NCBI GenBank assembly: GCA_963662615.2
Contig: CAXXSR010000001.1
Span: forward strand, 96,001-160,000
Direction of reading: 5' to 3'
DNA length: 64,000 nt
From: Dehalococcoidia bacterium
GTDB taxonomy: Bacteria > Chloroflexota > Dehalococcoidia > Bin125
Shown here: positions 1,488 through 57,052 of the stretch, one piece after another
Position numbering within the stretch: position 1 is the stretch's first letter
How the letters are laid out: each line of letters begins with the position of its first letter
Made by a program: the position numbers and the translations under genes
Notes under the pieces: model-generated
The model's database searches: none
The model's input: only the letters and a program-made list of their open reading frames with translations
Told to the model about the DNA's origin: nothing

Positions 1488-1756
1488 CCGAACCAGTACC
1501 TCCTCAGGACCTTGTTTACCCGGCTTGGGGATCGGGCCGGGTGCACGCCAACCCCCACCCCTTCCGGCACACCTTCGCCACCTGGACAATCGAGAACCAC
1601 GCCCGGAAGTTGGACGTGCAGTACCTGCTGGGCCAATCGACCTCGGCGATGGTGCGGCGCTACTCGGCGACCTACGATGCGGCCAAGGCCGCGGCCGCGC
1701 ACGCAAGCTTCAGCCCCGCGGCGCGGCTCCTCCGCAATGGAGCGATCGGCTCCTGA
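1488..1756 (+). pseudogene. Tyrosine recombinase C-terminal relic 1
   Basis: HPFRHTFATW...DVQYLLGQSTSAMVRRY (box II region); frameshifted and lacking an N-terminus. Confidence 0.85.
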
Positions 1757-1934
1757 TCGGCCAAGACTCCGCCGGCGAACGCACGTTCTCCCTCCGCCGT
1801 CACGCGACGCGGGGTTCCGCCGTCTACGTCTGGGAAGGGCCCGGTGCCCACGGTCTCCATTTGCCTGAGAATGGGAGCCCGGGGCAGCTCGACGCCGGGC
1901 CTTGCGCTCTTGAGGCGGCGAGACTCCGCGGGAG

Positions 1935-1962
1935 GCCGACTCGATGTCGGATAGCTGTGTGC
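1935..1962. repeat. 42-bp palindrome family, left-half copy
   Basis: GCCGAC TCGATG TCGGAT AGCTGT directly before the RRM gene ATG. Confidence 0.55.
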
Positions 1963-1963
1963 C

Positions 1964-2551
1964 ATGAAGCTGACTCTTGCCTACGTGTCTCCGGACACGA
2001 CGGAATTCGACGTGCTCCAGCTGTGCGAGCCGTACTCGTCGGTCCGGGATGTGCAGCTGGTCGAGTCCCTCGCGGGCGGGGGTCGGATGCTGGCGATCGT
2101 CGACTTCGCGGATGACGCCGAAGCGGCCCGGGCCATCGCCGCGCTGGACGGCACGCAATTCGCCGGGCGACCGATGCGAGTGCGAGCGGTGTCCGAGACC
2201 GACGTCCGGCCGGCTTCCCGAACGCGGCAAGGCGCGGCCCCGGCTCTCCGGGCCGACGCCGGGGCCGAGAGGGCGAGGGCCGTCCACCCTCGCGGGGAAT
2301 CAAGCGGGCGCCGACGGATCGTCACGCTGCCCGCTGGGGCGGTCGCCCGGGCGGGGCTCTACGTGATCGGAACGCTCCTCCTGATGCTTGGGTTCGGCTG
2401 CCTGGGGCTGGCGCGGGGGCTGCAGGGAGCAGGGCGACAGCTCATCCGCGCCACCCGGTGGCGACACCCGCTCGTTGCCAGCGAGGCCGGACACCAGCAA
2501 GCCGACCGAGCCCCCGACGACCGACCACACCCCGACGCCACGCCTGACTGA
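1964..2551 (+). CDS. RRM RNA-binding domain protein with C-terminal hydrophobic helix
   Basis: AIVDFADDAEAARAIAALDGTQFAGRPMRV is RRM-like; later TM-like segment LYVIGTLLLMLGFGCLGLA. Confidence 0.7.
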   Translation: MKLTLAYVSPDTTEFDVLQLCEPYSSVRDVQLVESLAGGGRMLAIVDFADDAEAARAIAALDGTQFAGRPMRVRAVSETDVRPASRTRQGAAPALRADAGAERARAVHPRGESSGRRRIVTLPAGAVARAGLYVIGTLLLMLGFGCLGLARGLQGAGRQLIRATRWRHPLVASEAGHQQADRAPDDRPHPDATPD

Positions 2552-2589
2552 GTGCTCGGCGCGTGCAGCGCACGTGTGGTAGATCAGCG

Positions 2590-2618
2590 GCTTCCCAAGC
2601 AGAGGGTCGCGGGTTCGA
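2590..2618 (+). other. tRNA-Gly(CCC) 3'-half fragment, att-like site 1
   Basis: GCTTCCCAAGCAGAGGGTCGCGGGTTCGA corresponds to anticodon loop, variable loop and T arm start; no complete cloverleaf. Confidence 0.75.
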
Positions 2619-2633
2619 CTGGCGGGCGCAAAA

Positions 2634-2675
2634 CCCGAACCTCTGTGGGATAGAGCTGTCCGAGATAAAAGTTGA
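2634..2675. repeat. 42-bp palindrome copy
   Basis: CCCGAA CCTCTG TGGGAT AGAGCT GTCCGA GATAAA AGTTGA. Confidence 0.6.
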
Positions 2676-4192: not shown

Positions 4193-4612
4193 ATGACCGC
4201 TGCCCACGACGCCCTGGCCGGCCTGCGCCAGTCCGCGCGTGACCCTGGCTCGCGGGCTGCGGGTGGACCGGAGGCCGCCGGCCGGGCACACGTTGTGCGT
4301 CGCCGCGAGAATCTCGGGGCGATCGCGAGTCGGTACGACACGACCGTGCGAACGCTGGTGGAGCGCAATCAGATCGCGAACCCCAACCTGATCCGCGTAG
4401 GGCAGGTGCTGTTGATCGACGCGCAGGCGGTCGGGCGGGCTGAAGAGCCGGTTGTGCCCCGCCCGACGGACCGGAGTGTCTACGTCGTCCGTCCCGGGGA
4501 CACCTTGAGCGGTGTCGCGGCACTGTTCAACACGACGGTCCAAAAGCTGTAGAGGAAGAACGGGATCCGCAACCCCAACCGCATCCGCGTGGGGCAGAAG
4601 ATCAAGGTCTGA
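4193..4612 (+). pseudogene. Two-LysM protein with in-frame TAG at 4550-4552
   Basis: LysM repeats; the second continues after the stop as RKNGIRNPNRIRVGQKIKV*. Confidence 0.75.
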
Positions 4613-4915
4613 CCAACGCTCGAACCCAGCTGGGGTTCGGGGCCTCCCGCCTTGAGAGCATGCGAGGAGTCGAGACCGCAGGTATCACAGCACGCGGTGG
4701 GGCGAGGGTCCCGCCGAACCCCCGGCGCCGGCGGCTTCCGGCGCCACGAACTGCGTGGCCTCGCGGATCGCCTTCTCGCTTGACTGCTTGCCACGCTCCG
4801 TGACAGCGTCCCCTACGACGCTGGGCGGCGTGCCCAGTCCGTCAAGCACACAGTCGTGGCTCGACCGCGGACCGAAGATCTCCTACAGGTCTTGGGAGTC
4901 CCGTTAGTTCAAAAC

Positions 4916-6916
4916 TTACCCCGGGGGATCAGTATCCAAGGGCTCAACATCAAAGGTCCCGATCGCCGGGGGTCCCTCCACATCGCGCTCGAAGATCGCG
5001 GTGACCTCCCACGTCCATCCCATCCGGCGCTCATTGATGATGAAGCCGTCAGGACTATCAAAGACGTACACCGGATCTTCGCTAACTTCTTCCCCATTAA
5101 ATAGCGCTTCTTCCATCACGACTGGAAATGAAGCGGTCGCTGACTGCACCACGAGGCGATAACGTACGGCCTGCGCACAGAGACTCCACGAAAATCTCCA
5201 GATGATTCCGTCCGTGCGATCGCGGCGACCGTTGTCCAGCACGTCGCCTCGGCTAGGAGAAAGAAGTGTCGGTGCGCAACTCCTGCCTTCGTCAACTTCT
5301 AGAACCAGGAGTGCTTTGGCCGCATCTTCCGCTTGCTCAGCTCCCATCCTGAGCACCTCAGCCTGCGCTTGGGCCGCCTCAGCCACCCCTACCGCCCGCT
5401 GGGCGTCGGACCGCGCCCTATCAGCATCTTGCCACTGCCACGCCGCGAGACCCGTGAGGACGAGGCCAATAGCCAGTCCCACCACTAAGGACGCGATGCG
5501 TCTCCGAAGTCGCCGACGCGCGACCTGCTCACGCTCTTTCAGAGCCTGGCTTGCATCGAGGAAGGACCGCTCTAGCTCATCTAGCTCTGCCGGGTGCGCT
5601 GCCGACCACGCAGTCGCTTCCGCCAGCCGTTTGCCTCGTAGTAGGGCGTCCTCGTCGCTGCCCAGCCGCTGCCACTCGCGCGCCGGCCTTGCGAGCGGGT
5701 GCGTCGCTCCCGCCCGCCTCTTGCTGTCCCATGCCTCGTTGTCGGCAAGAATGGGACCGATGCAGCGGTCGTGGCTGAGCTCGTACCAACGCGTGCCCGC
5801 CCGGTACTCCGCGCGAATCAGGTGCTGTCCTTCCAGCACGTCGATGGCGGCGTTGGAGATGCCTCCGGTGGACTCCTCATCTCGGTAGACCGTGCCGCGC
5901 GTCCCCATGGTCGTGATCAGCGTGCTCCCGAACCAGCGGCGAAGCGTCGGCTCGTCCACGCTGGATGTGCCCGTCGCCGCGCCGAGAGCATCGCGGTAGA
6001 ACGTTCGCAGCGCGCGGTCAACGTCGCCAAATTCCCGCAGGTGGCCTTCGTCGATGACGGTGGTTGCGGCCGGCAAACTGGACCAGAGCGTCACGCAGAC
6101 GACCTGCAACTGCACGGGTTCGACATACGGTCCGGTCACCGCCACGGCTTCGCCACCGGCGCTGACGGCCCGCACCTGCAGCAACTCTTGGACCAAGCGT
6201 TCGGCCACGCCTGGTGCGAAGGTGCGATCGGCATCGACGAGCGGCCCTTGGACCGCCTCGAGGGCCGCCGGCTCCCGGAGCCGCTCGAGCCGAAAGCGGG
6301 TCCGCAGCCGCTCGGGTAGCTGGCGGGCAAAAGGATCGAGTTGGGCCAGGTAATCCTCACGAATGACGAAGACAACCCGCAGCAGGGGATCGGCGGCCAG
6401 CGCCGCGGCCACCTGATCGAAGAACGCGAATTGGGCGGCGGACCCGCGATCGGTGATCAGCGTGAACAGCTCTTCGAACTGGTCGAAGATGAGCGCCCGC
6501 GGTACGAGGTGCCCCTCGTCGTCGGTACCGCGCGGACGCGCCGCCAAGAAGTCCGCCAGGGTGGTGCTCATCAGGGACTCGGGTTCCGCCTCTGGGTCGA
6601 GGTGGAGCAGGGCGTTGAAAATGTAGAGATTCGTCACGCTGGCCGGATCCACTCCCTCCGGAGCGGCGCCGAGCACTCGGGCCAAGGGGAGGACATTGAA
6701 CCCGTTCCCCTGTAGCGCGGGCGCGACGCGCACATTGAAGAGCGAAGTTTTGCCCGCGCCCGACTGGGCGTAGGCGAGGACGACTGGATGGCCCCGGATC
6801 AAGGAGACGATCTCGTTGGTTTCCCGCTCCCGCCCGAAGAAACGGGCCCGGTCCGTGGCGTTGGCTTCGAACGGGCGCGGGCCGACGTCGGGATTCTGGT
6901 CGGGGGAATCAGGCAT
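4916..6916 (-). CDS. nSTAND1-type STAND NTPase with TM helix and C-terminal beta-rich domain
   Basis: GPRPF..FFGRERE, Walker A AQSGAGKTSL, IFDQFEELFT, IREDYL, YELSHD; TM segment IASLVVGLAIGLVLTGLAAW. Confidence 0.85.
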   Translation of the reverse strand: MPDSPDQNPDVGPRPFEANATDRARFFGRERETNEIVSLIRGHPVVLAYAQSGAGKTSLFNVRVAPALQGNGFNVLPLARVLGAAPEGVDPASVTNLYIFNALLHLDPEAEPESLMSTTLADFLAARPRGTDDEGHLVPRALIFDQFEELFTLITDRGSAAQFAFFDQVAAALAADPLLRVVFVIREDYLAQLDPFARQLPERLRTRFRLERLREPAALEAVQGPLVDADRTFAPGVAERLVQELLQVRAVSAGGEAVAVTGPYVEPVQLQVVCVTLWSSLPAATTVIDEGHLREFGDVDRALRTFYRDALGAATGTSSVDEPTLRRWFGSTLITTMGTRGTVYRDEESTGGISNAAIDVLEGQHLIRAEYRAGTRWYELSHDRCIGPILADNEAWDSKRRAGATHPLARPAREWQRLGSDEDALLRGKRLAEATAWSAAHPAELDELERSFLDASQALKEREQVARRRLRRRIASLVVGLAIGLVLTGLAAWQWQDADRARSDAQRAVGVAEAAQAQAEVLRMGAEQAEDAAKALLVLEVDEGRSCAPTLLSPSRGDVLDNGRRDRTDGIIWRFSWSLCAQAVRYRLVVQSATASFPVVMEEALFNGEEVSEDPVYVFDSPDGFIINERRMGWTWEVTAIFERDVEGPPAIGTFDVEPLDTDPPG

Positions 6917-7700
6917 GGGAGAAGGCCTCCCAGCGTGCACGTAACTCCCCGGCGAACTCCCGCGCGTCGCCCCAATAAGTCCGCACCTTGATCTTCTGAA
7001 TCGTGTCGAAGTACGCGTCGAGATAGCGCTGAGCGCGTTGCCGACCGTGCTCAGACGCATCCGCCGCGGGCGGCGCCAGCTGCACGGCAATGCTCGTCAT
7101 CCCCAAGCTCGCGCCCAGCGAACCGATGAGCCCGCGGAAGAGGACGCGGATGTTCCAATCTGTAAGGCTGTAGCCCACGAACAGTAGCGACGTACCGGCC
7201 AACGCCGTGCGGATTGTGGCCGGGAGCAGGTCTTGATCGTTGGAGAGGCGCACGAGGAAATCGAGGTAATCGTCCTCGGTCAGGACCAGCGACTGCGGAA
7301 GCGCATAGTGGCCGTGAAGGTGATAGACGAGCGGGGTGGCCGGACTGGGCTCGAACCCGGACGCTAAGGCAGAAGGCTGCTCCATCTCGACGAAGCGATT
7401 CCAGTGGCAGAGTTCGCGGACCGGGTCCTTCTCTCGCGCCTTGAGGGCTTCGACCATGAAATCGTCGTAGTTCGTGGTGATATAGAGGGGGAGGTTGAGG
7501 TCGGCCAGCACGCCGTGGGGCGAGTCGGCGGCGGAAAAGTCGGGCGGCTGGACGTCGCGGAATCGGCGCTGCACGTCTTCCTTGGGAAAGAGGTCGTCTT
7601 GGTCCACGGCGAGGTATTGCGCGACCCGAGCCAGGTCCTGCGAGTCTTGGAGGGGATAGCCGTGCTCCTCCGCCCACTGGCGCGCTATTTCGCGTGGGAG
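6909..7700 (-). pseudogene. SIR2-like (SIR2_2) domain protein, 5'-truncated
   Basis: YITTNYD, HLHG, LVLTEDDY and LLFVGYSL motifs; frame continues upstream (REIARQWAEEHGYP) but the N-terminal GAG motif is missing; stop overlaps the STAND ATG. Confidence 0.8.
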
Positions 7701-8174
7701 GTCACGGTGTTCCGCTACGGCCCCTACACGCGCGATGCGGAAGTCATCCGCCTAACCGAGGCAGTGCGTGACGACTTCGCGAGCTCTGCCGTCCCTGTTG
7801 GCCCCTTCTGTTTCTTTCGCTCCGAGCAGCATGCGTTCGCAGCCGTTGTGTTGGAACGTCGAGAGGGCAATGTCGGGGTGGAATTCGACACGATCACGCT
7901 CGCCGACTCCAATCGGCAGCTCACCGATCCGCCGGCATTGGAGATGGTGTCGGTGAAGCAGACACGCGATGCGCTACGCACGGCCACGCGCGTGGAGAAC
8001 CTGTCCGGTAGGGACCGACTGGCCCACGTGCACAACCATCTTGTCGATCTCCTGTCGTATATCGAGATGCAGGAAGGGTTCAGCCTCTTCCCGGGGGAGC
8101 GCAGTCGGGCGTCGTTGGACCGGAGAGTCAGTAGCGGACTAACCACCCGCAAGACTGAGGACAGACCTCGATAG
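7701..8174 (+). pseudogene. 3' fragment of a hypothetical protein
   Basis: Protein-like frame begins at the SIR2 breakpoint. Confidence 0.45.
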
Positions 8175-8626: not shown

Positions 8627-9615
8627 ATGGCGCGGAAGTATCTCCTGTCGATCGACGGTGGCGGGATCCGCGGAATCATTCCCACGGTCGTGCTAGCGAA
8701 GCTCGAAGAGCAGACGGAGAAGCCCACGCGAGAGACGTTCTCGTTTCTCGCAGGCACGTCGACGGGGTCGTTGATCGCGGGTGCCTTGGCGGCGGGGATT
8801 CCCGCCAGAGACCTCTTGACCCTCTATCGCAGCAGGGGGCCAGATATATTCAGGAGCACGCCGATCCTCGGGCAGATCCGCCGGTTCGTCGCTGGCTGGC
8901 AGTACAGCACGGACACGCTGTACGCCGTCGCGCGCGAGGCCCTCGGCCCCGCGCCGAACATTGAGCTCAACGACCTACCGGTCGATGTCTTCATCACGTC
9001 GAAGCGGGTGGCGGACGGATCGGCCTGGTATCTGGTGAAGGACAAGGATCCGGCGGGGCAGTTCAAGGGCAACTCGCGGCGAACAGGCGGGCTGCGTCTA
9101 GCGGAGTGCGTGACGGCATCGTCGGCCGCGCCTACCTACCACAAGCCGTGGACGATCCAGCACGACCCCCTCGCCGACGACGGACGAGCTCCGATCGGCG
9201 CGTTGGTGGATGGGGGCGTCGGCATCGCGCGAAACCCAGTGCTGGAAGCCTGCTTCGAGGCCTTCCACTTCACTGGTGACTACGACGAGGCTGAGACGAC
9301 CATCGTGTCGTTAGGAACCGGTTGGGCAGAGAGCCAGAAGCGCACCGGCCCGGGTGGATTCTGGAGTGGCTGACTTGGGTGTTGGGCGAGGCTCTCAGCG
9401 AGCCTGCCGAGCAGCAGACTCGCATGGTGCCACATACGTTTGAGAGGGCGACCTTCTACCGCATCGACTACCAGATGCAACGATCGATCGGTCCGGACAA
9501 GGTGAAAGAGATCGAAACGCTCGTCGGCTACGGCGAACAGCTCGCCAACCAGGTCGACTGGAAGGACATCCTGGCCGGGAAGGAGACCGTTCACTTCGTC
9601 TCCGCGCCGAAGTGA
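8627..9615 (+). pseudogene. Patatin-like phospholipase with a frameshift near 9355
   Basis: DGGGIRG, GTSTG, SSAAPTY and DGG motifs; C-terminus continues in ORF 9322-9615. Confidence 0.8.
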
Positions 9616-11888: not shown

Positions 11889-12084
11889 CGCTGTCTCCGA
11901 TCTGTACAGCGCCAGGTAGGTGTGCCGGCAAGTCTAGCCGAAACAGTGCTCGCCAAAGAAACTCCATCAGTGACGCTTGGGCCCGGCGTTGTGAGCCGGA
12001 GGAGCGCCGACATGGACGAGCAGACGGGAGTCGCGGCGCGCGATCCGATCGCCACATCATCATCGACTCGACGGTGCTGGACAC

Positions 12085-12607
12085 AGTCGGCGGCGTAGCG
12101 ATGGACGCGGGAGTTGCCGTAGCCGTCGCTCACAAAGATGTCGCCGTTGGCCTGGGAGATGGCGCGGTCAGTGGGCTTGTTGAAGGGGTCGCCGCTCTGG
12201 GGTGGCGCCGGGTCGCCGCTGCCGAGCGTCATCACCGTCGTGCCCGCGCGGTCGGTCTTGGTCAGTTTGTGCGTGTGCACGTCCACGAGCCAGAGGTAAT
12301 CGTCGGGGTCGACGCGCACGGAGTGGGGCCAGCCGAAGCGGACACCGCGCTAGACCAGGCGGGTGACGCCATAGGGGTCGACGATCTCGTCCATGTCGCC
12401 GTGCGGCGTGTCGTTGCCCCAGTGGTCGATCATGTGGCCGTCGGCGTCGAATACCAGCATGGGCATGTTGCCCCGGTTGAAAACGTAGACGCGGTCCTGG
12501 GAGTCCACGGCGACCGCGGTAGCCTCGCGGAGCCAGAAGCCGTGTGGGATCTTGGCCCAGCCCGGTACCGGCTCGTAGGTCGTGGCGGTGGTGGGGGGTC
12601 CCGGCAT
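12085..12607 (-). pseudogene. NHL-repeat (peptidylglycine lyase-like) protein, in-frame TAG at 12350-12352 and 3'-truncated
   Basis: VAVDSQDRVYVFNRG, FNKPTD and VSDGYGNSRVH motifs. Confidence 0.8.
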
Positions 12608-12793
12608 GGTTCTCGTCCTCCCTGCTTGGTGGGCGCGCCCGTCGCTGCGCGGCTCGCTACGCAGGGTACTGCGTTCGCGCTTCTTGGAAACCGGCGGATC
12701 GAAGGCGCCCTGGACCAGAGCCGCGGAGGGAGGCGCCTCTCAGTCCCTGGCGCGACGATGGGTCTGGCGCGCGGGGCGTGTTCGGTCACTCTG

Positions 12794-16177: not shown

Positions 16178-16300
16178 GGCTGCCGGCGGCGATCAGCCGA
16201 TGCACGCCGCTCTCCAAAGGCGATCTCTATCTCGGTCAGCACTGTTCTGCACCGCGTCGAGAACAGGACTGTGCGAGATCCAATATGGCGTAGTTTTCCG
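16178..16300 (+). repeat. ~125-bp repeat containing the 71-bp long palindrome (16219-16289)
   Basis: Homologous to 57258-57380 and partly to 53838-53917. Confidence 0.8.
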
Positions 16301-16301
16301 C

Positions 16302-16615
16302 GGGGACGGGGACGGCCCGTTGTTCCTCACGATCGACCGGCCCCAGAAACCGCGCGGGCCGATGAACAAGTACCTTCTCGGGACCCTGTTTACCCGGCTT
16401 GGGGAGCGGGCCGGCGTGCATGCCACCCCGGTTCGCTTCCGGCACACCTGCGCGACCTGGGCGATCGAGAACCACGCCGGGAACTCGACGTGCAGTTCCT
16501 GCTCGGCCACTCCCCGTCGGCGATGGTGCGCCGGTACTCCGCCACCTATGATGCGACGAAGGCCGCCGAGGCGCAGGCAGCGTTCACCCCGGCAGCGCGC
16601 CTGCTCGGAGCGTGA
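16302..16615 (+). pseudogene. Tyrosine recombinase C-terminal relic 2
   Basis: GPLFLT...RFRHTCATWAIENH / ELDVQFLLGHSPSAMVRRYSATYDATKA; frameshifted. Confidence 0.85.
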
Positions 16616-20724: not shown

Positions 20725-20782
20725 GGCTAGTCGGCCAGTAGATCCGCGAGCGGCGGCCTGTCCGAGCACGAAGGAGTGAACG

Positions 20783-21886
20783 ATGGTTGATTCGATCCGC
20801 GTCGGCATCGTTGGCGCGACTGTGACCCCCGGCGGTAGCGGCTGGGGCGCGAAGGCCCATGTTCCCGCTCTGCAGGCGCTGCCCGGCTACCAACTCCGCG
20901 CTGTCTGCACCGCGCACGCGGAGACCGCGGCCTCGTCGGCGGCCCGATTCGGCGCCGAGTTGGCGTTCCACGCCATGGACGACATGGTTGCGCGCCCGGA
21001 CATCGACCTCGTCGTCGTCTGCGTGCGCGTGCCGTGGCACTACGACTTGGTGATGGCGGGCCTGCGGGCGGGGAAGCCCGTCTTTTGCGAGTGGCCCCTC
21101 GGCGCGACGCTCGAGGAGGCGGAGGAGATGGCGAAGCTGGCGCGCGATCGCGGCTTGCGCACCGCCGTCGGGCTGCAGGCCCGCAGCGACCCGAGCGTCC
21201 GCTACGCGCGCGACCTCATCGCCCAGGGCTACGTCGGCGAGGTGCTGACCGCCAACCTCCGCGTGATGTCGCAAGCGGTGCTGGAACGCGGCCCGGGTCG
21301 TATCTGGCAGGCGGTGCGCGCGAACGGCGCCAATCCGCTCACGATCGCCGGCGGCCACGCGATCGACGCGCTCTGCTACATCCTCGGCGAGGTGGTGGAG
21401 CTGTCGGCGCGCGTGACGACACGGATCACGGAGTGGCGCGACGAGGAGACCGGCGCCGGCGTCCCGGTCGACGCCCCCGACAGCATCATCGTTGCGGCGC
21501 GTATCGAGAGCGGGGCCGAGATCGCGATCCAGGTGGCCCACGTGCCCGCCCAGCCCACCGGCACCCGCCTCGAGATCTACGGCGACGCGGGGGCGCTCTT
21601 CCTGACGGCGCCTTCGGTGTCCACCGGTCCCAGCCTGCTACATGGCGCCCGAGGCAGCGACGCACCGGCGGAGCTGGCACCGCCGACCGAGTATCTGGTG
21701 GCTCCGGAGGGCACGCCGCCGGGCCCGCCCCGCAACGTCGCGCACGCCTATGCACGGATGGCGGACGCCCTCGAAGCCGGCAAGCAGTTCGATCCCGACT
21801 TCGACCTGGCGGTGAGGCGGCATCGCCTGCTGGCAGCGATCGAGCGTTCCTCAGAGACCGGAATCAGGGAAACGGTCTCCGGCTAG
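20783..21886 (+). CDS. Gfo/Idh/MocA family oxidoreductase
   Basis: RVGIVGA, GKPVFCEWPLG and GGHAID motifs. Confidence 0.9.
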   Translation: MVDSIRVGIVGATVTPGGSGWGAKAHVPALQALPGYQLRAVCTAHAETAASSAARFGAELAFHAMDDMVARPDIDLVVVCVRVPWHYDLVMAGLRAGKPVFCEWPLGATLEEAEEMAKLARDRGLRTAVGLQARSDPSVRYARDLIAQGYVGEVLTANLRVMSQAVLERGPGRIWQAVRANGANPLTIAGGHAIDALCYILGEVVELSARVTTRITEWRDEETGAGVPVDAPDSIIVAARIESGAEIAIQVAHVPAQPTGTRLEIYGDAGALFLTAPSVSTGPSLLHGARGSDAPAELAPPTEYLVAPEGTPPGPPRNVAHAYARMADALEAGKQFDPDFDLAVRRHRLLAAIERSSETGIRETVSG

Positions 21887-21892
21887 CTGGCA

Positions 21893-21967
21893 CACGACGC
21901 GGCCAAGGCCGTCGACGTGCAGGCGGCGTTCAGCCCGGCCGCCCGGCTCCTCGCCCGCGCCGGTTAA
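21893..21967 (+). pseudogene. Tyrosine recombinase extreme 3' relic 3
   Basis: HDAAKAVDVQAAFSPAARLLARAG* matches the tails of relics 1 and 2. Confidence 0.7.
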
Positions 21968-22130
21968 TCTCCTGCTTCCCAGGCATGGAATCTGCCGCCC
22001 CCCGGATGTAGGCGTGCCCTCCCGTGCAGCCGTGAGGCGCGATTGGGTTCTCGTGCCCTCTACGTCTGATCAGCCGATGCTCGCGGTCGGGTTTGGCGAG
22101 CGTGCGCCGGCCGGTTCCCCGCGGACGCGG

Positions 22131-22820
22131 TCAGGCTTTCTCGCGGACGGCGTGGCCGCTGGGGCAGGCGATGCCCGTGCCGCCAAGTCCGCAGTAGCCG
22201 TCCGGATTCTTGGCCAGGTACTGCTGGTGATACGCCTCCGCGTAATAGAACGTCGATGCCGGCAGGATCTCCGTCGTGATGACTCCGTGCCCGGCGTCGC
22301 GCAGCGCCGCTTGGTAGGCATCGCGGGACGCCTCGGCAGCCCGGCGCTGCGCCTCCGACCCGTAGTAGATCCCCGAGCGGTACGGCGTCCCCACGTCGTT
22401 GCCCTGTCGCATCCCCTGGGTTGGGTCGTGGCTCTCCCAGAAGGTCTTCAGCAGCAGCTCGTACGTGGTCAGCGTCGGGTTGAACACGACGAGGACGGTC
22501 TCGTTGTGGCCGGTGCGACCGGAGCAGACTTCCTCATAGGTGGGATTTGGCGTGAGCCCTGCGGCGTACCCGACTGCAGTCGTGAAGACGCCGGTCGCCT
22601 CCCAGAAGCACTGCTCAGCACCCCAAAAACAGCCGAGGCCGAAGATGGCCGTCTCCACGCCTGCCGGGAACGGCGGCTCCAAGGGGGCGCCGTTAACGAA
22701 ATGTTCTCGGGGGACGGGCGTCCGCTGCTCACGGCCGGGCAACGCCTCCGCCTTCGTGGGGATCTCGGTCCTCGGTCGGCCGAACAAGGCCATGGGCATC
22801 CTCGCTTCCCTCGGGCTCAT
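22131..22820 (-). CDS. msrA: Peptide methionine sulfoxide reductase A, copy 1
   Basis: [17 protein letters not shown] and YHQQYL motifs; start may be 22799 or 22793. Confidence 0.95.
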
Positions 22821-23443
22821 CCGCCCGCGCCGACAGTGTACCGCGCCCGCCGCACGGCATGGCCGCTGCAGACCCAGCAGCGGCTTCCCAAGCGGGCGCC
22901 CAAACCATGAACGCCGGCGCGTCGTCGCTCCCGCGCGCTGGCTACCGGGCGGGCGCGCCTGAGTCGCGGCGGGCTTCTCTGGTCATGGGTTTCAAGTTCT
23001 GACCGGTCGTCGGGGATATCCTGGCCGACCTCACGGACGAGCGCGCTCCTTGGCATGACCTCCGCATGTTCCGCATCGATCGGCTCCGTGCTTCGATGCC
23101 TCATGAGAGCTGCGTTGTTGAACTCGTCAGCAACGGCGTCGTATTCATGTGCGAAGGAGCGTGCTTGATCAGGCGTCATTGCCATCCAGGCAAGAAACCT
23201 GCTGGCAGTGAGAGAGACAAGCCGCGGGTCATCGAGATCGTTTTCGGCCGCGATCATCCTTTTTAATGCGGCGCTACGCTCAAGCTGGTCAAGTCGCAGC
23301 AGCTGCGAGAACGTTGCGCGCATTGCAGCCTGGCGGGCAACCTCACCAATATCAGCGAGTGCTGCCCAGCCGCGGTCTGGTAGGGATGACGAAGAGACCA
23401 CAGAAGCCCCGCATCCGAGACTGCGATGTTGATCAGCGCGCAA
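22817..23443 (-). CDS. Hypothetical helical protein, possibly degraded
   Basis: Central part is protein-like; both ends uncertain. Confidence 0.35.
22883..22893 (+). other. tRNA-Gly(CCC) anticodon core, att-like site 2
   Basis: CAGCGGCTTCCCAAGC, identical to the left part of site 1. Confidence 0.5.
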
Positions 23444-25000: not shown

Positions 25001-25021
25001 GATGTTTGCCTGCGCGGGGGG

Positions 25022-33461: not shown

Positions 33462-33540
33462 CGCTGGATCGCGCACTCGCGCACAACCAGAGCACCAGCA
33501 CTGACTTCTACGTCGCCGGGAGGCCGATCCGCCGTTGTGG

Positions 33541-33849
33541 TTACGAAACTGCGATCGCCTTCGAGACTTCCAGGTCCGGGGCGACCTCCGGGTTCACTTT
33601 GAGACCGCCGCAGGCCTTCGCCAGCTGGGGGACGCAGTCAGCGGCGAATATCCGCATCTGCTCCTCGGTCTCCTGACCACTGAATCCGCCCATCTCGTCG
33701 GCCAGGATGCCCTGGCGGATCTGGTCCACCAGCCCCCGCTGGAAGCTCTCGTGCGTCTCGGCCAACGTGCCCGAGTTCACGCGGATCCCTTCCGCGGCGA
33801 CGCTGGGCAGGTCCGTCGGCCCGGTCTGGAAGATCGCGAGTTCAAGCAT
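33541..33849 (-). pseudogene. LLM gene with a probable in-frame internal deletion
   Basis: N-terminal-like segment (DQIRQGILADEMG) runs directly into a C-terminal-like segment (EEQMRIFAADCVPQL). Confidence 0.6.
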
Positions 33850-34092
33850 CCGTCCCTTTTTCGCCAGTCTGATGCGGACCGCGCCGAGCGCTGCGCGTGT
33901 GGCCTGCCCGCACTGCCCGGTCCCCTGCAGATACCCGACCGAAGCTCGCTCGGCTTCGCGGCTAGTTCCGCACCCGTGCCCCGGTCTGATCGCAGCGCCG
34001 AAAAACCGACCTCTTGTGTAGCCGATCAGGGGGCGCTTGTCTATCCGGGCGCGCCGCCGTACGCCCCTGCCCTGCCCCCGGACAGCGTTCAA

Positions 34093-34134
34093 CCCGACTC
34101 GATGTCGAACAGAGCTGTCCGACATAGGATCGGA
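34093..34134. repeat. 42-bp palindrome copy
   Basis: CCCGAC TCGATG TCGAAC AGAGCT GTCCGA CATAGG ATCGGA. Confidence 0.8.
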
Positions 34135-37600: not shown

Positions 37601-38080
37601 GATCGCCTCGTTCCATCGCCGAGCGTTCCCTCGCAGAGCCGGCTGCAGTCTACTCGTCTGCCGCCCCCTCGGGCGCCGCAGTCGGAGGGCGTGATCTCTC
37701 GCAGCGGCCCCGGGCGCTGAAGGGCCCAGGCGCTGAACGGCTAGAAGGGCGAGGGTCCGTTCTCAGCAGCCAAGCGCTGGAAGACCAGCGGGCATCACAC
37801 AGACCTGCCCGCCGTCCACGGCCGTGACAATCTGGAGCGCGTCCGTGGAATGCGCTCTTGGTCCGAGTCACCCGCACGACCGACCGGCCGTTGCCGGCGC
37901 TCTCCGGCGCCGCATCCCGGAGCTTGAAAGCCGCCCGGCGCCCGCCACGAGGACGCGCGCCGGACGGCCTGTTGATGCTGCTGGTGGGCAGCCGAAGGGG
38001 ATCGTCTAGTCCTCAACCTCCTCCTTCGTCACCCCACGGGGGGGTTCACAGCCGCACCCCTCCGCCGCCAATCCGGGGCC

Positions 38081-39574
38081 TCAATCCAGTACGATCGCTC
38101 CCGTCTCGTCGTACCGCACGCCCAGCGCGTCGGGCCCGAACTCCTCGTCGCTGAAGTGCGAGCAGGTGATCTCGCCACCTCCGACCAGGCAGGTGTCGTA
38201 GCCGTGCGCGGAGCGGTGGTACTCGTCGAAGCTGAGCGGTCCCAGCACGCCGAGGTACTCCACCTTTTCCAGCTCGTCGGCGATCGCGGTGGTGTCATCT
38301 ATCGTGCCCGCCGCCTGCATCGACTTGACCAGCATGAAGACGTAATCGTGTGTCCACAGCGTGGCGTCCATGACGACGGGGAACGGGTCACAAATGGGGC
38401 TGCCACACTCCAGCTCGTTCACGGCTTCGTAGTAATCCGCCGCCCGCGCCGGGTCGTAACCGCCCGGCACGGCCCGGCAGACGTTGAGGCAGGCGAGCGC
38501 GACCGGCACGTCGTAGTCAAGGCTGGCGTTCTCGATCCACCAGCCGGGGTCCGCGCCGAAGACCATGTAGCCCTTCTTCGCCACCTGCAGCTCGAGCGCC
38601 TGTGCGGCGATCAGGACCGAGTCTACCGCGCGGTACCAGTTGTGCATGACGTCAGGATTTTGAGCCTTGATCCGCGTCAGGAAGGGCGAGAAGTCGGTAA
38701 CCCCCACCGGGTAGTAGACCACATCCCTGGTCTCCTGCCCCAAGGCCTCGAGGACGTCGTTGTAGAACTCGCCCAGGAACTTCCCGGAGGGGTCGTCGGT
38801 GGCCAGGATCATGGAGAGGTCGCCCGGCTCCGCGCCCAGCAGGTCCAAGACGCCCACGGCCGTGATGGTGCTGCGGACGGCCTCGGCCGGCTCCGTCTGG
38901 AAGAGCCAGTGCTTGTCGCCGCCGGAGCGCGCCGTCTCCGGCGTCAGGACCCCATCCGGCGAGCTGAGGATGCTCAGCGCCATCAGGTGCAGCACCTCCG
39001 CCTGCTGAGTGATCTCCTGCGCCGCCAGCCCCGGGCCGTGCGGCGACGGCCCGAAGATCACCTTCACCCCTTCGTCCCGGACCAGCTCGGCCGTGGCGAT
39101 GACGGCCGCGTTGATGTCGGAACGGGTGTCGCGCTCCACCAGCTCAATGGTGTAGAGGGTGTCGCCGACGACGAATCCGCCGCCGGGCTCACAGATCCCC
39201 GCCGCCACGCAGCGGGCATCGCCCTCGTTGATCATCGCAGTCGCCACTCTGATCCCGTTACTCAAGGTCTCCCCGGCCCAGGCAAAGTCACCGGTCATCG
39301 GGTGCGCCGAGCCGATCCGAAGCGTGCCCGTCTTCAGGACCACCGGCTCCGGCTCGGCGGCCGGCGCGGGCTCCACCTGGGCGGCCGGCGCGGGCTCTGG
39401 TGCAGCAGCCGGGGCCGGCGCGGGCTCCGGCTCCGCGGCCGGCGCCGCCGCCGCCGCGGGCTGGGCTTCGTCGTCGTCATCGCCGCAGGCCGCGGCCAGC
39501 GCCAGGGCCAAGGCGATGAGCGCGAGGAGTGCGAAGGCCGATAGCCCCCTCACTCGCCAAAGACGCCGCTTCAT
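38081..39574 (-). CDS. LivJ-like ABC transporter substrate-binding lipoprotein
   Basis: Lipobox AAAC, Pro/Ala linker, DFSPFLTRIK motif. Confidence 0.88.
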   Translation of the reverse strand: MKRRLWRVRGLSAFALLALIALALALAAACGDDDDEAQPAAAAAPAAEPEPAPAPAAAPEPAPAAQVEPAPAAEPEPVVLKTGTLRIGSAHPMTGDFAWAGETLSNGIRVATAMINEGDARCVAAGICEPGGGFVVGDTLYTIELVERDTRSDINAAVIATAELVRDEGVKVIFGPSPHGPGLAAQEITQQAEVLHLMALSILSSPDGVLTPETARSGGDKHWLFQTEPAEAVRSTITAVGVLDLLGAEPGDLSMILATDDPSGKFLGEFYNDVLEALGQETRDVVYYPVGVTDFSPFLTRIKAQNPDVMHNWYRAVDSVLIAAQALELQVAKKGYMVFGADPGWWIENASLDYDVPVALACLNVCRAVPGGYDPARAADYYEAVNELECGSPICDPFPVVMDATLWTHDYVFMLVKSMQAAGTIDDTTAIADELEKVEYLGVLGPLSFDEYHRSAHGYDTCLVGGGEITCSHFSDEEFGPDALGVRYDETGAIVLD

Positions 39575-39843
39575 GATCTGCCTCCTTCTCTGTTCCTCGT
39601 TGTCTGTCACCATTTGGCTACGCGTCATCCGTCCCGCGCAGCCTTCGTCTCTTCGCCCTCCTCGTTGATGCAGTTCTTGGCTGCCCTCCCTCCGCCCCAG
39701 CAGGGGCCGGACCTCGCTGAATCCTTGGCCTCGTTCTTTCGCGCGGTCGTGATCTCTAAGCAGACTACGCCGCTAGGCGCAATCCCAGCGAACGTGTTCT
39801 GGTTAACACAAAGCGGTCCACTTGGCAACCCGGCCGCCTTGAA

Positions 39844-39885
39844 TCGAACTCTATGTCGGACAGACCTGTCCGACATAGAATCCGA
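39844..39885. repeat. 42-bp palindrome, near-consensus copy
   Basis: TCGAAC TCTATG TCGGAC AGACCT GTCCGA CATAGA ATCCGA, followed by flank GACGCCGTCG. Confidence 0.9.
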
Positions 39886-40134
39886 GACGCCGTCGCCGAA
39901 CCTGGCCTGCGCGCAAGCATCCGCACGCGATCGAATATTCGTGTTGCACGGGTTTTGGCACCCTACAGGAGCTGCCGGCGGCGATGGAGGGGCACGTCGT
40001 CGCGGAGGCCGAACGGAGCGGGCTCTCGGCGCGGCGTTGACCTCTGCGCCGAACGCTCTTGCGTCCGGTTGCGGCTTCCCGCACGTCATGAGCTTGATGC
40101 GGAACTGCGCTTCGCAATCCGTCCCTCTCCCGCC

Positions 40135-42534: not shown

Positions 42535-42536
42535 GG

Positions 42537-43448: not shown

Positions 43449-43452
43449 CGCG

Positions 43453-46578: not shown

Positions 46579-46700
46579 AACGGCTCCGATGACGGAGAGG
46601 GCCCTGCCGACACGCTGATAGAACAGCTCCGGTTCTTCCCATCCAAACGCGGATAAGACGGCCTTGGCGACACAGACCAGCGCCGTACCGAAAAGCGCGC

Positions 46701-47045
46701 TTACTCGTAGACGTGGTTGGGCAGGAACTCGACCTGCTTGACCTCCATCTTCCCCTGGTTGTAGTTGATCCCGGTTTCGTCGTGCCCGGGGAAGACGAAG
46801 GCGTCCGTCTCCTTGGCGATGCCCTCGATCTTCGTCATCGAGGCGGCGGCGTTCTCATTGCTGAAGTTCACGAAATTGGGAAGGTATGGCGGGCCGTAGG
46901 CGTCGTGGGTTGCGATCGCGTCGCCGGTCAAGATCGCCCAGCCCGTGTGGTCCAGCTTCGTCACGATCCCCATCGAACCGGGCGTGTGCCCCGGCAGGCT
47001 GATTGTCCAGAGGTCCTTCAGGATCTCCTGGTCGCCGTACATCAG
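46701..47045 (-). pseudogene. AHL-lactonase-like MBL protein, 3' fragment
   Basis: PGHTPG, LTGDA and FPGHD motifs; HxHxDH motif missing. Confidence 0.75.
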
Positions 47046-47290
47046 CGTGGGACGCTTTCGTGACAGGCGATGCGGAGGCCGACCTCGCCGCGCCGGAGCA
47101 GACGGTGCGGGATCTGGCGGTCAAGCTCGTGCCCCGGCTGCGAGTTGCCTGCGTCACCGATCCGCTTGACACATGCCGCTAGCCGAGCATCCATGTCATC
47201 GATGGGCCTTCCAACTGTCGCAGCTGCGCACCCGAGCTCCGCGGCGAACCCGCCTCACCTGCGTTTCCGCCGGCGCCGATGGAACGAGAG

Positions 47291-52049: not shown

Positions 52050-52210
52050 CTCCGCCTCCGCCACACCTTCGCGATCTGGGCCATCGAGAACCACACCCGC
52101 GAGTTGGACGTGCAGTTCCTTCTCGGCCCCTCCCTTCGGCGATGGTGCGGCGCTACTCGGCGACGTACGACGCCGCCAAGGCGGCCGCAGCGCACGCGGC
52201 CTTTAGCACC
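52050..52210 (+). pseudogene. Tyrosine recombinase C-terminal relic 4
   Basis: LRHTFAIWAIENHTRELDVQFLLG / AMVRRYSATYDAAKAAAAHAAFS. Confidence 0.85.
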
Positions 52211-53684: not shown

Positions 53685-53846
53685 GGACACCTCCTCGGCC
53701 TAGGCTGCTCGGAATTCCCACTCATCGACGCCGCACAGGATGGAGCCCTTGCAGGCTGGACGCAAGCACGAATGTCCGCCCCACTCCGTCACGAAATCGG
53801 AGAATCGGGATCCCGTCGGGCATGGTTGGATCGCTTTCTCTCCAAA

Positions 53847-53917
53847 GGCGAACTCTATCTCGCTCCGCACTGTTCTGCCCCGCGTCGAGAACAGTCCTGT
53901 CCGAAATAGGGTTCGCC
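53847..53917. repeat. 71-bp long-form palindrome
   Basis: GGCGAACTCTATCTCG...ACTGTTCT-N11-AGAACAGT...CGAAATAGGGTTCGCC. Confidence 0.8.
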
Positions 53918-54106: not shown

Positions 54107-54185
54107 CGCCAAGGCGGCCGCAGCGCACGCCGCGTTTAGCCCCGCCGCCCGCTTACTCGCAACCGAGGCCAGCGCGGCCGGCTAA
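54107..54185 (+). pseudogene. Tyrosine recombinase extreme 3' relic 5
   Basis: AKAAAAHAAFSPAARLLATEASAAG*. Confidence 0.7.
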
Positions 54186-54191
54186 GCGCCG

Positions 54192-54209
54192 GCTTCCCAA
54201 GCAGAGGGT
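54192..54209 (+). other. tRNA-Gly(CCC) fragment, att-like site 3, 6 bp after the relic-5 stop
   Basis: GCTTCCCAAGCAGAGGGT, identical to site 1. Confidence 0.7.
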
Positions 54210-54317
54210 TTGCCGCCGCTGTCCGCGGCGCCCGAAACCCGACCCTTGCGGAAGCCGAGGCGGTGGACATGGCGTTGCCCGTCTGCTTGGCTACGCGAGA
54301 CAAGGGGCGCGCGAACG

Positions 54318-55901
54318 ATGCCCATCGAGACGCAGCGGACCTTCTGGAGGACGATGCCCGGCATCCTGGCTGGCGTCGCAGCGCTGATCACTGCGGTTGC
54401 AGCGCTGCTTGGGGCGTTAGCTGGATTTGGCGCGTTCTCGGGGGATGGCGGACCAGCACCCACCGCCGCTCAGAGCGAGGCCACGCCAACGCTGGATCCT
54501 AGCGCGGAGGACGCTACAGACGAGGTCCCAGGGGGACAGGCGGTCGCCGAATCGCCAGCCGGAGCGCAACAGGAATCGGCGGAGCCGCCCGCTCCCGCTC
54601 CCGCTCCGGCAACCGAGCCGACCCAGAGCGTCGAAGAGGCGGTCCGTCTAGACAAAGAGGCTGATGCAGCGGCGCTCGAAGCAGAGTCCGGGACCGCCGC
54701 CGCCGAGCCAACCCAGAGTGCCGAAGAGGCGGTCCGTCTAGGCAAAGAGGCTGATGCAGCGGCGGTCGAAGCAGAGTCCGAGAGCGCCGCCGCCAGGGCT
54801 GCAGCACGGGATGCCACGGAGTACGCGACGAGAGCCGAAACCGCCGCGCTTGACGCCCCACAAGCCGCCGCCCCTGAGACGGCGGCCTACGCAGTCGCCC
54901 GGTGGGCCGTACAGACGAGAGAGCACGCCGAAGAAGCGCGCACCCACGCGACGAGTGCGCGGGAATTGGCGCTGAAATCGGAAGGACTGGCGAGCGACGC
55001 ACAATCAAAGCTCAACACCATCGATTCCGACACGGCGAACGCTGCAACCCGTGAATCGGCTGACCGAGCTTCCCGGCTTTCATCCGCAGCTCTGGAGCGC
55101 GCCGCAGAGGCGAAAGGCGCGGCATCCGCTGCATCCAAAGACGCAGCAGACGCCGAACGGCGGGCCGAACGGGCCGTCAGGGTAGCAAACCGCGCAACGA
55201 CCGAATGTCGGGACGCGGAATGTCTGTTTGATCGCGGCCAACTGCGGGAGGCGCGGGGGGATCACCTCGGGGCACTTGAACACTACCTCGCTGTGGAAGC
55301 CTGCGAAGGTGTCGTGGATGAGGCACGCACGCAATGTCTTGGTCCGGACAGCGCCGACGAGAATCGAGAGACCGTGACCGACGCGGAAATGCGGCTTGTC
55401 GCCCTGATACGGACCGCGAAGTTCAGGTCGGCGGTCATCCTCTCGCGGATCCCGGAGGTGTCGTATCTCCTCGGCCCGATTGAGGCGATGCGGCGGCTAC
55501 TCGAACGCGTCCCCAAGCTTCCCTGGAAAGACCAACCACCCGACATGGCGGAAGCCGAAGAAGCCCTCCTAGCTCTCTTCGACTACGTCTGGAACAAAGA
55601 GGGAAACGGCCTCTCCGCAGTAAACACACAGCTCGTGAACGAAGAGATCGTATTGGCGCCGGAGGACCGGAACGCAATCATGCGGCTCGATCCGGGTGAG
55701 CTCCTGATTCTTCTGAGGCGATCGGAGTCCCACGATCAATGGGTAGAGGCTATGGTACGCGACGAGATCTCCGGCGTATCGTTTGTTCGAGCTGGGTGGG
55801 TAAACCTGCGCTTACAAGACCCCAGCGCCCTGCCGCTCTTCGGATCGCAGGAAATCAACGAAACCATCCTCGCGACAGTACCGTATACACCGACGCCCTG
55901 A
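54318..55901 (+). CDS. Membrane-anchored Ala-rich coiled-coil protein with possible C-terminal SH3-like domain
   Basis: N-terminal TM helix; internal 76-bp direct repeat (54615-54690 and 54705-54780); WVEA...AGWV. Confidence 0.7.
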   Translation: MPIETQRTFWRTMPGILAGVAALITAVAALLGALAGFGAFSGDGGPAPTAAQSEATPTLDPSAEDATDEVPGGQAVAESPAGAQQESAEPPAPAPAPATEPTQSVEEAVRLDKEADAAALEAESGTAAAEPTQSAEEAVRLGKEADAAAVEAESESAAARAAARDATEYATRAETAALDAPQAAAPETAAYAVARWAVQTREHAEEARTHATSARELALKSEGLASDAQSKLNTIDSDTANAATRESADRASRLSSAALERAAEAKGAASAASKDAADAERRAERAVRVANRATTECRDAECLFDRGQLREARGDHLGALEHYLAVEACEGVVDEARTQCLGPDSADENRETVTDAEMRLVALIRTAKFRSAVILSRIPEVSYLLGPIEAMRRLLERVPKLPWKDQPPDMAEAEEALLALFDYVWNKEGNGLSAVNTQLVNEEIVLAPEDRNAIMRLDPGELLILLRRSESHDQWVEAMVRDEISGVSFVRAGWVNLRLQDPSALPLFGSQEINETILATVPYTPTP

Positions 55902-56188
55902 TCGGTGAGGCGCCACGACGAAAACGGAGGCGAGCGTTTTCTGTTTGCGCTGCGGGACGGCTGGCAACGAAGTGAGCGAGCGGTCGGGTCGGCCTTTGAA
56001 GAAACGTGCTGATGCCCGTCCGACGGCTCCTCCGTGCCGCCAGCGCGACCACGCCCGTGGAAGTCTTGGCCAGTGTTCGCAGAAATATTGAGGCCCCACA
56101 GCCGAAAGGCGTGTTCGGCTGCGCCAGACTCCGATGCGACTCCAAAGTGTGCCAAATAGTGGCGCCTCCGAACTCCATCCCAGTACAG

Positions 56189-56230
56189 CCGAATTGGATC
56201 TCGGAGAGGTCTGTACGAAATTCAATCCGA
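56189..56230. repeat. 42-bp palindrome copy
   Basis: CCGAAT TGGATC TCGGAG AGGTCT GTACGA AATTCA ATCCGA. Confidence 0.65.
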
Positions 56231-56265
56231 CATAGCGACGACTTGTGTTCGCGGCGAGGACTCGG

Positions 56266-56955
56266 TCAGGCGCTCTCGCGCGCGGCCAGGCCGCTGGCGC
56301 AGGCGATGTCCGTGCCGCCCAGTCCGCAGTAGCCGTCCGGATTCTTGGCCAGGTACTGCTGGTGATATGGCTCCGCGTAATAGAACGTCGATGCCGGTAG
56401 GATCTCCGTCGTGATGACTCCGTGCCCGGCGTCGCGCAGCGCCGCTTGGTAGGCATCGCGGGACGCCTCGGCAGCCCGGCGCTGCGCGTCCGACCCGTAG
56501 TAGATCCCCGAGCGGTACGGTGTCCCCACGTCGTTGCCCTGTCGCATCCCCTGGGTTGGGTCGTGGCTCTCCCAGAAGGTCTTCAGTAGCAGCTCGTACG
56601 TGATCAGCGTCGGGTTGAACACGACGAGGACGGTCTCGTTGTGGCCGGTGCGACCTGAGCAGACTTCCTCATAGGTGGGGTTCGGCGTGAGCCCTGCGGC
56701 GTACCCGACTGCAGTCGAGAAGACGCCGACCGCCTCCCAGAAGCACTGCTCTGCACCCCAAAAACAGCCGAGGCCGAAGATGGCCGTCTCCATGCCTGCC
56801 GGGAACGGCGGCTCCAAGGGGGCGCCGTTGACGAAATGTTCTGGGGGGACGGGCATCCGCTGTTCACGGCCGGGCAACGCATCCGCCGTGGTGGGTATCT
56901 CGGTTCTCGCGCGGCCGAACAAGGCCATGGGCATCCCCGCTTCCCTGGGATTCAT
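56266..56955 (-). CDS. msrA: Peptide methionine sulfoxide reductase A, copy 2
   Basis: GCFWGAE motif; about 18 of 229 residues differ from copy 1 (counted by eye). Confidence 0.95.
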
Positions 56956-57018
56956 CCGCCCGCGCCGACAGTGTACCGCGCCCGCCGCAGGGCATGGCCA
57001 CTGCCGGACCGAGCCGCG

Positions 57019-57052
57019 GCTTCCCACGCAGAAGGTCACGGGTTCCAGCCCG
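57019..57052 (+). other. Degenerate tRNA-Gly 3'-half fragment, att-like site 4
   Basis: GCTTCCCACGCAGAAGGTCACGGGTTCCAGCCCG. Confidence 0.65.

Follow-up and report, generated by a model that had tools for sequence, protein, structure and literature searches.

Probable accretion and decay of integrative-element units at tRNA-Gly(CCC) anticodon-arm copies in a Dehalococcoidia genome

The stretch of DNA analysed here, called the window, covers 64,000 nucleotides of a Dehalococcoidia genome (G000; contig C1, positions 96001-160000), the assembly of which consists of two contigs, C1 and C2, with 2.66 Mb in total and 68% G+C. Positions are those of the window unless C1 or C2 is given, G-numbers denote genomes and L-numbers related loci. 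The window carries five C-terminal remnants of one Xer-like tyrosine integrase, all on the plus strand, together with copies of an 11-mer from the anticodon arm of tRNA-Gly(CCC), which is called the core (one mismatch at most was allowed in the window search). The elements at issue are as follows.

1424..1756, plus strand: relic 1, the C-terminal ~88 codons of the integrase, frameshift near 1540, TGA at 1754-1756 (PF00589 at 2.7e-07)
1964..2551, plus strand: RRM-domain gene (RRM_1, 6.4e-10)
2565..2620, plus strand: tRNA-Gly(CCC)-like fragment, core at 2590-2600, tRNA match through the T-loop (2590-2618), 3' part 21/36 and 5' part 13/28
16296..16615, plus strand: relic 2, codons ~205-315, one frameshift, TGA at 16613-16615, with a 115-bp repeat (16178-16298) fused to its 5' end
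21894..21967, plus strand: relic 3, the last ~24 codons, TAA at 21965-21967
21974..21984, plus strand: core with one mismatch, 6 bp past the relic 3 stop
22131..22820, minus strand: msrA copy 1 (PMSR domain), within the 0.9-kb core-to-core unit 21974-22893
22883..22951, plus strand: exact core (22883-22893) with a conserved right arm of ~58 bp, also present behind an integrase relic and core at C1 60744
52052..52210, plus strand: relic 4, codons ~256-307, frameshifted, without the last codons and the core
54107..54185, plus strand: relic 5, the last ~23 codons, TAA at 54183-54185
54192..54209, plus strand: core, matching tRNA-Gly(CCC) of G000 without a difference over 18 nt that start at the anticodon stem, 6 bp past the relic 5 stop
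54210..55901, plus strand: open reading frame (ORF) without a Pfam match, labelled in the initial annotation as a putative membrane-protein gene, first gene of the 2.8-kb unit 54192-57029
56189..56243, no strand: palindrome, member of a 46-bp family specific to G000
about 56269-56955, minus strand: msrA copy 2, 92% protein identity to copy 1
57019..57055, plus strand: core with one mismatch and a decayed arm like a tRNA-Gly 3' half, 3' part 20/36

From left to right, the tRNA-Gly-like fragment at 2565-2620 is followed by a 19-kb stretch that ends in relic 3 with its core and has relic 2 inside, then by the 0.9-kb msrA unit, a 31-kb stretch running from the ~58-bp arm to relic 5 with its core and containing relic 4, the 2.8-kb unit (ORF 54210-55901 plus msrA), and the decayed tRNA 3' half at 57019-57055. 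Relic 1 aligns to residues 233-291 of the query integrase and beyond, and the 5' flank of the 2565-2620 fragment has partial likeness to a D-arm or to the integrase terminus. ARAGORN found 0 tRNA genes in the window, and Rfam gave no match there. The initial annotation of this DNA had described relic 5 as an empty attachment (att) site, with a gene, a palindrome, a second msrA and a further core beyond it, and had noted no att site near relics 2 and 4; all of this is borne out, and no core adjoins either of these two relics. It had also taken relic 3, msrA and the following core for a filled site, which does not hold, since relic 3 has its own core at 21974; msrA, on the minus strand, comes after that core and before the one at 22883. 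In its other filled site, relic 1, the RRM gene and the fragment core at 2590 are real, but no clean core follows the relic 1 stop, at most a badly decayed one.

The constant feature of these sites is a module of integrase stop codon, 6 bp and core. At relic 5 the TAA is followed by 6 bp and then by the 18 nt of tRNA-Gly(CCC), and at relic 3 by 6 bp and the one-mismatch core. Elsewhere in G000 the same succession is found at C1 60744, C1 62783, C2 28298 and C2 31276, as well as at C2 6606, a site that the end of C1 repeats. The relatives sampled were 40 genomes, with no conspecific genome among them; here the same succession stands at L003/L015, L005/L012 and L006, and with a spacing of 4 bp at L014 (L003 lies in G009). 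We tabulated 16 close-family integrase 3' ends, 5 from G000, 7 from relatives and 4 from metagenome contigs, and a TTCCCAA-type core was located at +4 to +6 in seven of them, two being Gly/Lys hybrids. The 6 bp after the stop plus GC form an inverted repeat of the tRNA's GCAGAGGG, and the site thus has inverted repeats of 8 bp flanking the 7-nt loop TTCCCAA, the left half-site lying in the 6 bp after the integrase stop. Inverted half-sites around a short centre are the usual core layout of tyrosine recombinases. About 90 bp past the core are near-identical (about 2 differences) in three genomes (L003, L005 and G000 C2 6616-6525), although identity between their integrases is just 82%; homology to G004 breaks off at this piece, for which an attP arm and a small RNA are possible identities. 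The Rfam search of three related loci returned only tRNA-Lys and its antisense shadow, and nothing for the ~90 bp. A metagenome scan yielded 8 short loci, with the canonical core in 0 of 4 usable 3' ends and a variant at +6 in one. Distant integrase homologs (at most 55% identity) were examined in 301 genomes of the class; their loose core matches, 227-989 bp past the stop, failed against the 47-nt tRNA half, and these homologs say nothing on this att site.

Intact copies of the integrase, and one with an internal deletion, occur outside the window.

C1 1987152-1988096, C1 1996850-1997806, C2 6632-7585 and C2 18487-19446: intact integrase copies
C2 31320-32051: integrase copy with an internal deletion

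The intact integrases carry PF00589 at 4.5e-36 and a SAM-like N domain. They align to XerD at TGMR/TGLR, GKGRK/GKGNK, HRFRH/HVLRH, LLGHS/LLGHS and RRY/QIY (integrase/XerD) and also to a XerC-like structure; judged by these predicted active-site motifs, the intact copies are catalytically complete. The best model matches are XerD and XerC, both below the cut-off (145 vs 330 bits and 143 vs 335 bits, respectively), and the combination of sub-cut-off scores with many copies and relics does not fit the chromosomal XerC/XerD of dimer resolution. The integrase was detected at E<=1e-40 in three of 18 same-family genomes of a class-level sample, G000 included. A 3.3-kb stretch with integrase, core and cargo is 98.9% identical between G000 (C2 about 4440-7770) and L003 (3820-7153), which belongs to a different genus, and this identity across genera indicates recent horizontal transfer. 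The last 3,000 bases of C1 (2004984-2007983) are 100% identical to C2 3679-6678 and end inside an integrase element; the assembly probably breaks at this repeat, and the two contigs may form one chromosome.

Crossing-over at the core is suggested by the two msrA segments, which align at 93.8% (22120-22893 vs 56255-57029) with the alignment ending at the last base of the core. The right arm of msrA copy 1 is that of the integrase-relic site at C1 60744 (84%). Over 56255-57098, which takes in msrA copy 2, the core and the decayed tRNA-like arm to its right, there is 86% identity to a block in G009, another genus, where an inverted integrase relic and core lie 1.4 kb from the msrA block. One left arm thus occurs with two right arms, and one right arm with two left arms, as crossing-over at the core would produce. 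Two core-flanked units of 0.9-2.8 kb lack an integrase, 21974-22893 with msrA only and 54192-57029 with the ORF and msrA. The small msrA unit was considered as a deletion derivative of the larger one; this was not supported, as their left parts are unalignable save ~25 nt at the core. A strict empty/filled pair formed by C1 60744 and the succession of relic 3, msrA and 22883 was rejected, since only the right arm is common and the left integrase relics differ. Neither RRM nor msrA is a native neighbour of tRNA-Gly(CCC): both were missing within 4 kb at the loci of 15 relatives and at that of G000 itself.

The window holds seven matches to the core as against 1.26 expected, and seven were reached in 1 of 100 shuffles. 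Five are on the plus strand (2590, 21974, 22883, 54192 and 57019). Across G000 there are 13 exact 11-mers, several of which extend to 44-47 nt of tRNA, and 12 matches to an 18-mer with at most 2 mismatches. It is extremely improbable that no recombination system exists here, i.e., that the cores are chance matches or tRNA pseudogenes and that integrase proximity is coincidental. The high G+C does raise the background of matches, and the two minus-strand ones, 16397 inside relic 2 and 53009 inside a coding gene, look like chance. The excess over expectation and the long tRNA extensions speak against this explanation, and it is contradicted by the 6-bp spacing after the stop, fixed and recurring in several genomes, and by the arm swaps, with duplication boundaries exactly at the core.

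The initial annotation had left the intact tRNA-Gly(CCC) to be located. G000 has a single such gene, C1 218950-219024, which runs on the minus strand ~59 kb beyond the right edge of the window and has no integrase within 4 kb. The core is present in 24 of 24 same-family genomes, mostly once, and in 14 single-core relatives no integrase homolog was seen within 4 kb of the tRNA. Genomes with several cores are a minority (G000 8, G009 7, G004 5, G010 5, and G012, G015 and G017 3 each); msrA was found in three of the 16 family genomes searched, G000, G009 and G012, all of them multi-core. As to restoration of a split tRNA, several right arms hold only 8 nt of tRNA and others are nearly full 3' halves. 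Two tRNA-Gly-like copies, C1 172591 (plus) and C1 189125 (minus), form an inverted pair 16.5 kb apart, with near-full 3' halves (33/36 and 31/36) and related non-tRNA 5' halves, and the pair may flank an invertible or inverted segment; the copy at C1 189125 is oriented like the intact gene.

The module is constant, arms are exchanged exactly at the core, and intact copies with recent transfer exist elsewhere; on these grounds the window is probably an array in which integrative-element units accreted at tRNA-Gly(CCC) anticodon-arm copies and then decayed, with integrase-less mini-units resembling cis-mobilizable elements (CIMEs) among them. According to this model, a Xer-like tyrosine integrase with an att site centred on the tRNA-Gly(CCC) anticodon arm would lay down the units, and the integrase 3' end, the 6 bp and the core would be the fixed, integrase-proximal half of that site. 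New elements would enter at an existing core, either a displaced tRNA fragment or a resident element's att site, and units would pile up head to tail. Deletions and microhomology-joined insertions would then strip the integrase genes from the 5' side, and the leftovers would be scars of relic plus core and the core-flanked, integrase-less units 21974-22893 and 54192-57029. Three microhomology junctions were found: the 5' end of relic 3 is joined to a duplicate, with 94% identity, of the oxidoreductase gene at C1 750 kb, relic 2 to the 115-bp repeat, and a tRNA T-loop to the integrase relic at C1 62783. The order of these events, continued action of the integrase on the cores and the origin of the small units by deletion are presumed in this model.

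Several observations weigh against the array as just described. All 11 of the G000 relics map to integrase codons 167 or higher and none is N-terminal only, a C-terminal bias that random decay does not predict; an N-terminal relic was found in the relative G004. The five plus-strand cores of the window are all opposite in orientation to the intact tRNA-Gly(CCC), so the working gene does not anchor the array, which then requires either an inversion or a tRNA copy that is old and has since decayed (2565-2620). At their right ends the msrA and RRM units show no clear integrase remnant, apart from ~20 nt of loose likeness to the integrase terminus. In the 16 close-family 3' ends, the core stands at +41 in one and is lacking in eight. 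Every intact integrase is preceded by a tRNA-Lys 3' half, as described below, so the target or targets of the integrase are not settled. The large units hold metabolic and defence-like genes, with no replication, transfer or excision genes among them, and the single BipA gene of G000 lies in them, as do its two msrA genes; some units may therefore be chromosomal DNA between scars. The BipA neighbourhood in relatives showed no common synteny within 1.5 kb, a result neutral between element and chromosome.

The small units were also weighed as products of an integron-like platform, in which the integrase and Gly core serve as a landing pad and integrase-less circles (the msrA and RRM units) are inserted singly and can be excised in trans. 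This we regard as improbable. The 0.9- and 2.8-kb units do lie directly after a relic plus core and end in another core, the integrase module is conserved but nearly every copy has different DNA to the right of its core, and the msrA block with its core is common to two genera. However, there are only two or three such units, those with msrA share msrA and the right core only, their left parts being unrelated, and the integrases beside the small units are all dead relics. The msrA genes are antisense to the integrase, and neither an attC-like element nor a common cassette structure was seen. The enzyme is not IntI-like, as the integron integrase models scored 65 vs a 265-bit cut-off (TIGR02249) and 36.8 vs 435 (NF011946). 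The initial annotation had proposed an integron-like pickup of single genes between int and att; cargo at that position, on which the idea depended, is absent from all 16 tabulated 3' ends, intact copies included, and the core of relic 3 precedes msrA. What survives of it is the existence of the core-flanked, integrase-less, CIME-like units of 0.9-2.8 kb, without a gene between int and att. Its other suggestion, that many tandem integrations decayed here, agrees with our results in that the module is constant, cores delimit units and homology breaks at the core.

Upstream of the integrases a second tRNA comes into view. Every intact close-family integrase has a tRNA-Lys(UUU) 3' half ~135 bp upstream, starting at the anticodon loop. 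Five copies were counted in G000, six in relatives and one on a metagenome contig, several of them being a complete tRNA-Lys gene.

C2 32188-31230, C2 19690-18440, C2 7764-6600, C1 1997981-1996800 and C1 1988272-1987150: integrase with upstream tRNA-Lys in G000
L001, L004, L012, L014, L015, L016 and L202: integrase with upstream tRNA-Lys outside G000

The Gly loop is joined to a tRNA-Lys-like 3' half at three sites, and at C2 31276 the right arm agrees with Lys in 26/37 positions and with Gly in 22/37. Both tRNAs have C.GA.GGTC on the 3' side of the loop, and this likeness of the half-sites suggests that one integrase might use the arms of both tRNA-Gly(CCC) and tRNA-Lys(UUU). In G008 a second tRNA-Lys(UUU) stands free of integrase. 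The 5' arms of the pseudo-tRNA-Lys copies were tried as Gly-like and rejected, the Lys fit being about equal (11/14 vs 12/14). No tRNA-Lys-type site is present in the window.

These upstream halves raise the explanation that the mobile unit is the integrase alone, i.e., a ~1.25-kb module of tRNA-Lys 3' half, integrase and left half of the Gly core that hops into the anticodon arms of tRNA-Lys, tRNA-Gly and fragments of these, with the window relics as separate insertions into resident DNA. It would account for C2 32263-31230 and C2 19690-18440, where an integrase alone lies between a good and a diverged tRNA-Lys 3' half, for a conserved module with variable DNA on both sides, for the alike half-sites of the two tRNAs (C.GA.GGTC) and for large units without mobile-element genes. 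We nevertheless hold it unlikely: the 98.9% identity with G009 runs 2.1 kb beyond the core into cargo, the 80-90 bp right of the core are near-identical in three genomes, as for the attP arm of a larger element, the window lacks a site of the tRNA-Lys type, and the right arms at the window cores are mostly not tRNA-Gly halves. A related and similarly doubtful idea is that a 1.25-kb module, with the tRNA-Lys(UUU) 3' half upstream and the Gly core downstream, captures integrase-less circles such as the 0.9-kb msrA unit, which would enter beside the integrase and be traded between Dehalococcoidia genera; the Gly/Lys hybrids could then be footprints of recombination between the two sites with release of cargo circles. 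On the sequence evidence, the decayed accretion array is held to be the likeliest of these.

On this reading the array is a known kind of structure and no new gene-capture machine. Anticodon-centred att sites and tandem islands are well known in the field, and the Islander report (PMC4383910) counts 2083 anticodon-centred attP sites, with tandems of at least two in 125 cases and of at least three in only 4; the search described there excludes Xer-like integrases. As in those tandem islands, a tyrosine integrase (PF00589, the Islander marker, which is present here), displaced tRNA fragments at unit ends, a crossover centred on the anticodon loop and several units in a row are found. The differences, set against the Islander definitions, are that the window fragments are opposite to the working tRNA whereas an Islander fragment has the orientation of the tRNA gene, that most integrases here are reduced to 3' scars and the integrase is Xer-like, and that five cores occur in 55 kb, with some right arms that would not restore a tRNA. 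Accretion at att sites, cis-mobilizable elements and a path of decay followed by accretion are described in PMC5704250. The CIMEs and accretion of ICESt1/ICESt3 in Streptococcus thermophilus, as presented there, resemble the window in that att-flanked units devoid of genes for integration or transfer lie in a row with elements related to them, and 21974-22893 and 54192-57029 are att-flanked units devoid of such genes. As compared to these CIMEs, the phylum, the integrase and the target are different here, the units go down to 0.9 kb and one gene, and cis mobilization is putative; unlike the ICESt1/ICESt3 setting, no conjugation module was seen anywhere near the window units. Within the same class, PMC3146451 describes tandem ssrA islands of Dehalococcoides bounded by direct repeats of the 3' part of a small-RNA gene, 15 of which lack an integration module and are proposed to be cis-mobilizable. 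According to that account, those islands involve a serine recombinase and the T-loop region of the transfer-messenger RNA (tmRNA) gene, whereas in the window the recombinase is a Xer-like tyrosine enzyme and the site is in the tRNA-Gly(CCC) (and tRNA-Lys) anticodon arm. In the literature found, these ssrA/serine-recombinase islands are the only ones described in the class, and an array such as this one in high-GC Dehalococcoidia is not described.

Integrons are alike in having a tyrosine recombinase gene with an adjoining site followed by variable DNA, and in short integrase-less units bounded by sites. An attC is an imperfect palindrome with R''/L''/L'/R' boxes, and cassettes are mostly co-oriented. 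Here the integrase is far below the IntI cut-off, the site is downstream of the stop instead of upstream of a divergent intI, no attC structure is present, the units end in a tRNA-derived core, and they are not uniform, promoterless, co-oriented cassettes.

Beyond the cores and relics, the window contains further genes and repeats. The RRM protein is an orphan, having no close ortholog in 25 relatives. Defence-like cargo lies at 4916-7607 (minus), with a SIR2-like protein that has weak matches to the ThsA SIR2 domain and, beside it, a STAND NTPase (nSTAND1) which itself has no PADLOC match; a patatin-like phospholipase at 8627-9373 (plus) is recognised at 4.5e-46 by PADLOC as 'Effector/Phospholipase'. 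Inside the ORF 54210-55901, positions 54613-54792 are a tandem duplication of 90 bp with 92% identity, and an array of about 9 units of an 11-bp tandem repeat occupies the non-coding patch 29515-29613. The palindromes form a near-perfect family of ~46 bp with a fixed 2-nt centre and a half-site of about TCTATGTCGGACAG, with 43 copies in G000. Their clusters, each with integrase or att remnants close by, are on C1 (55-161 kb, 751-753 kb and 1978-1987 kb) and on C2 (20 kb and 300-307 kb), and several copies precede a start codon by ~80 bp; the family may be a MITE-like repeat or an operator. The 40 relatives had no copy, so the family is genome-specific, and a wider scan of genome contigs returned at least 117 single scattered matches, about chance level, with no multi-copy genome among the matches listed. 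The 46-bp palindromes do not bound the core-delimited units. A ~115-bp repeat, holding a split palindrome copy with a nested hairpin, recurs beside integrase relics and cores.

2639-2671, 12799, 13806, 15482, 16111, 19693, 27294, 32670, 33425 and 34098: palindrome copies in the window
39849, 47296, 47938, 56194, 57465, 61767 and 61874: palindrome copies in the window, continued
16178-16298, 53838-53907 and 57258-57378, with C1 1991384-1991498 and C2 28544-28606: ~115-bp repeat, the first copy fused to relic 2 at codon ~205
20748-21908, 23526-25415, 12074-12647, 32756-33330, 33523-34131, 37776-39969 and 46700-47067: repeat pieces with sequence matches elsewhere within G000

As the last line indicates, the window is pieced together from segments that have 81-99.8% identity to other loci of G000, many of which stop within genes and some of which have microhomology at the junction; 22% of it matches other places in G000 as against about 10% genome-wide. 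Genes cut by patchwork ends include a truncated aldo-keto reductase, a fragment of a luciferase-like monooxygenase and a split thiamine pyrophosphate (TPP) enzyme, and a 1.9-kb window copy with 99.8% identity breaks off in the middle of the aldo-keto reductase gene.

If the array is read as proposed, it provides a concrete att site and integrase for the mobile elements of an uncultured high-GC branch of Dehalococcoidia, and a route by which accessory genes, i.e., msrA, defence-like SIR2/STAND/patatin genes and catabolic genes, may reach these small genomes. Should it be true that the integrase uses the arms of both tRNA-Gly(CCC) and tRNA-Lys(UUU), or that tiny att-flanked units move in trans, this would be an unusual integration module.

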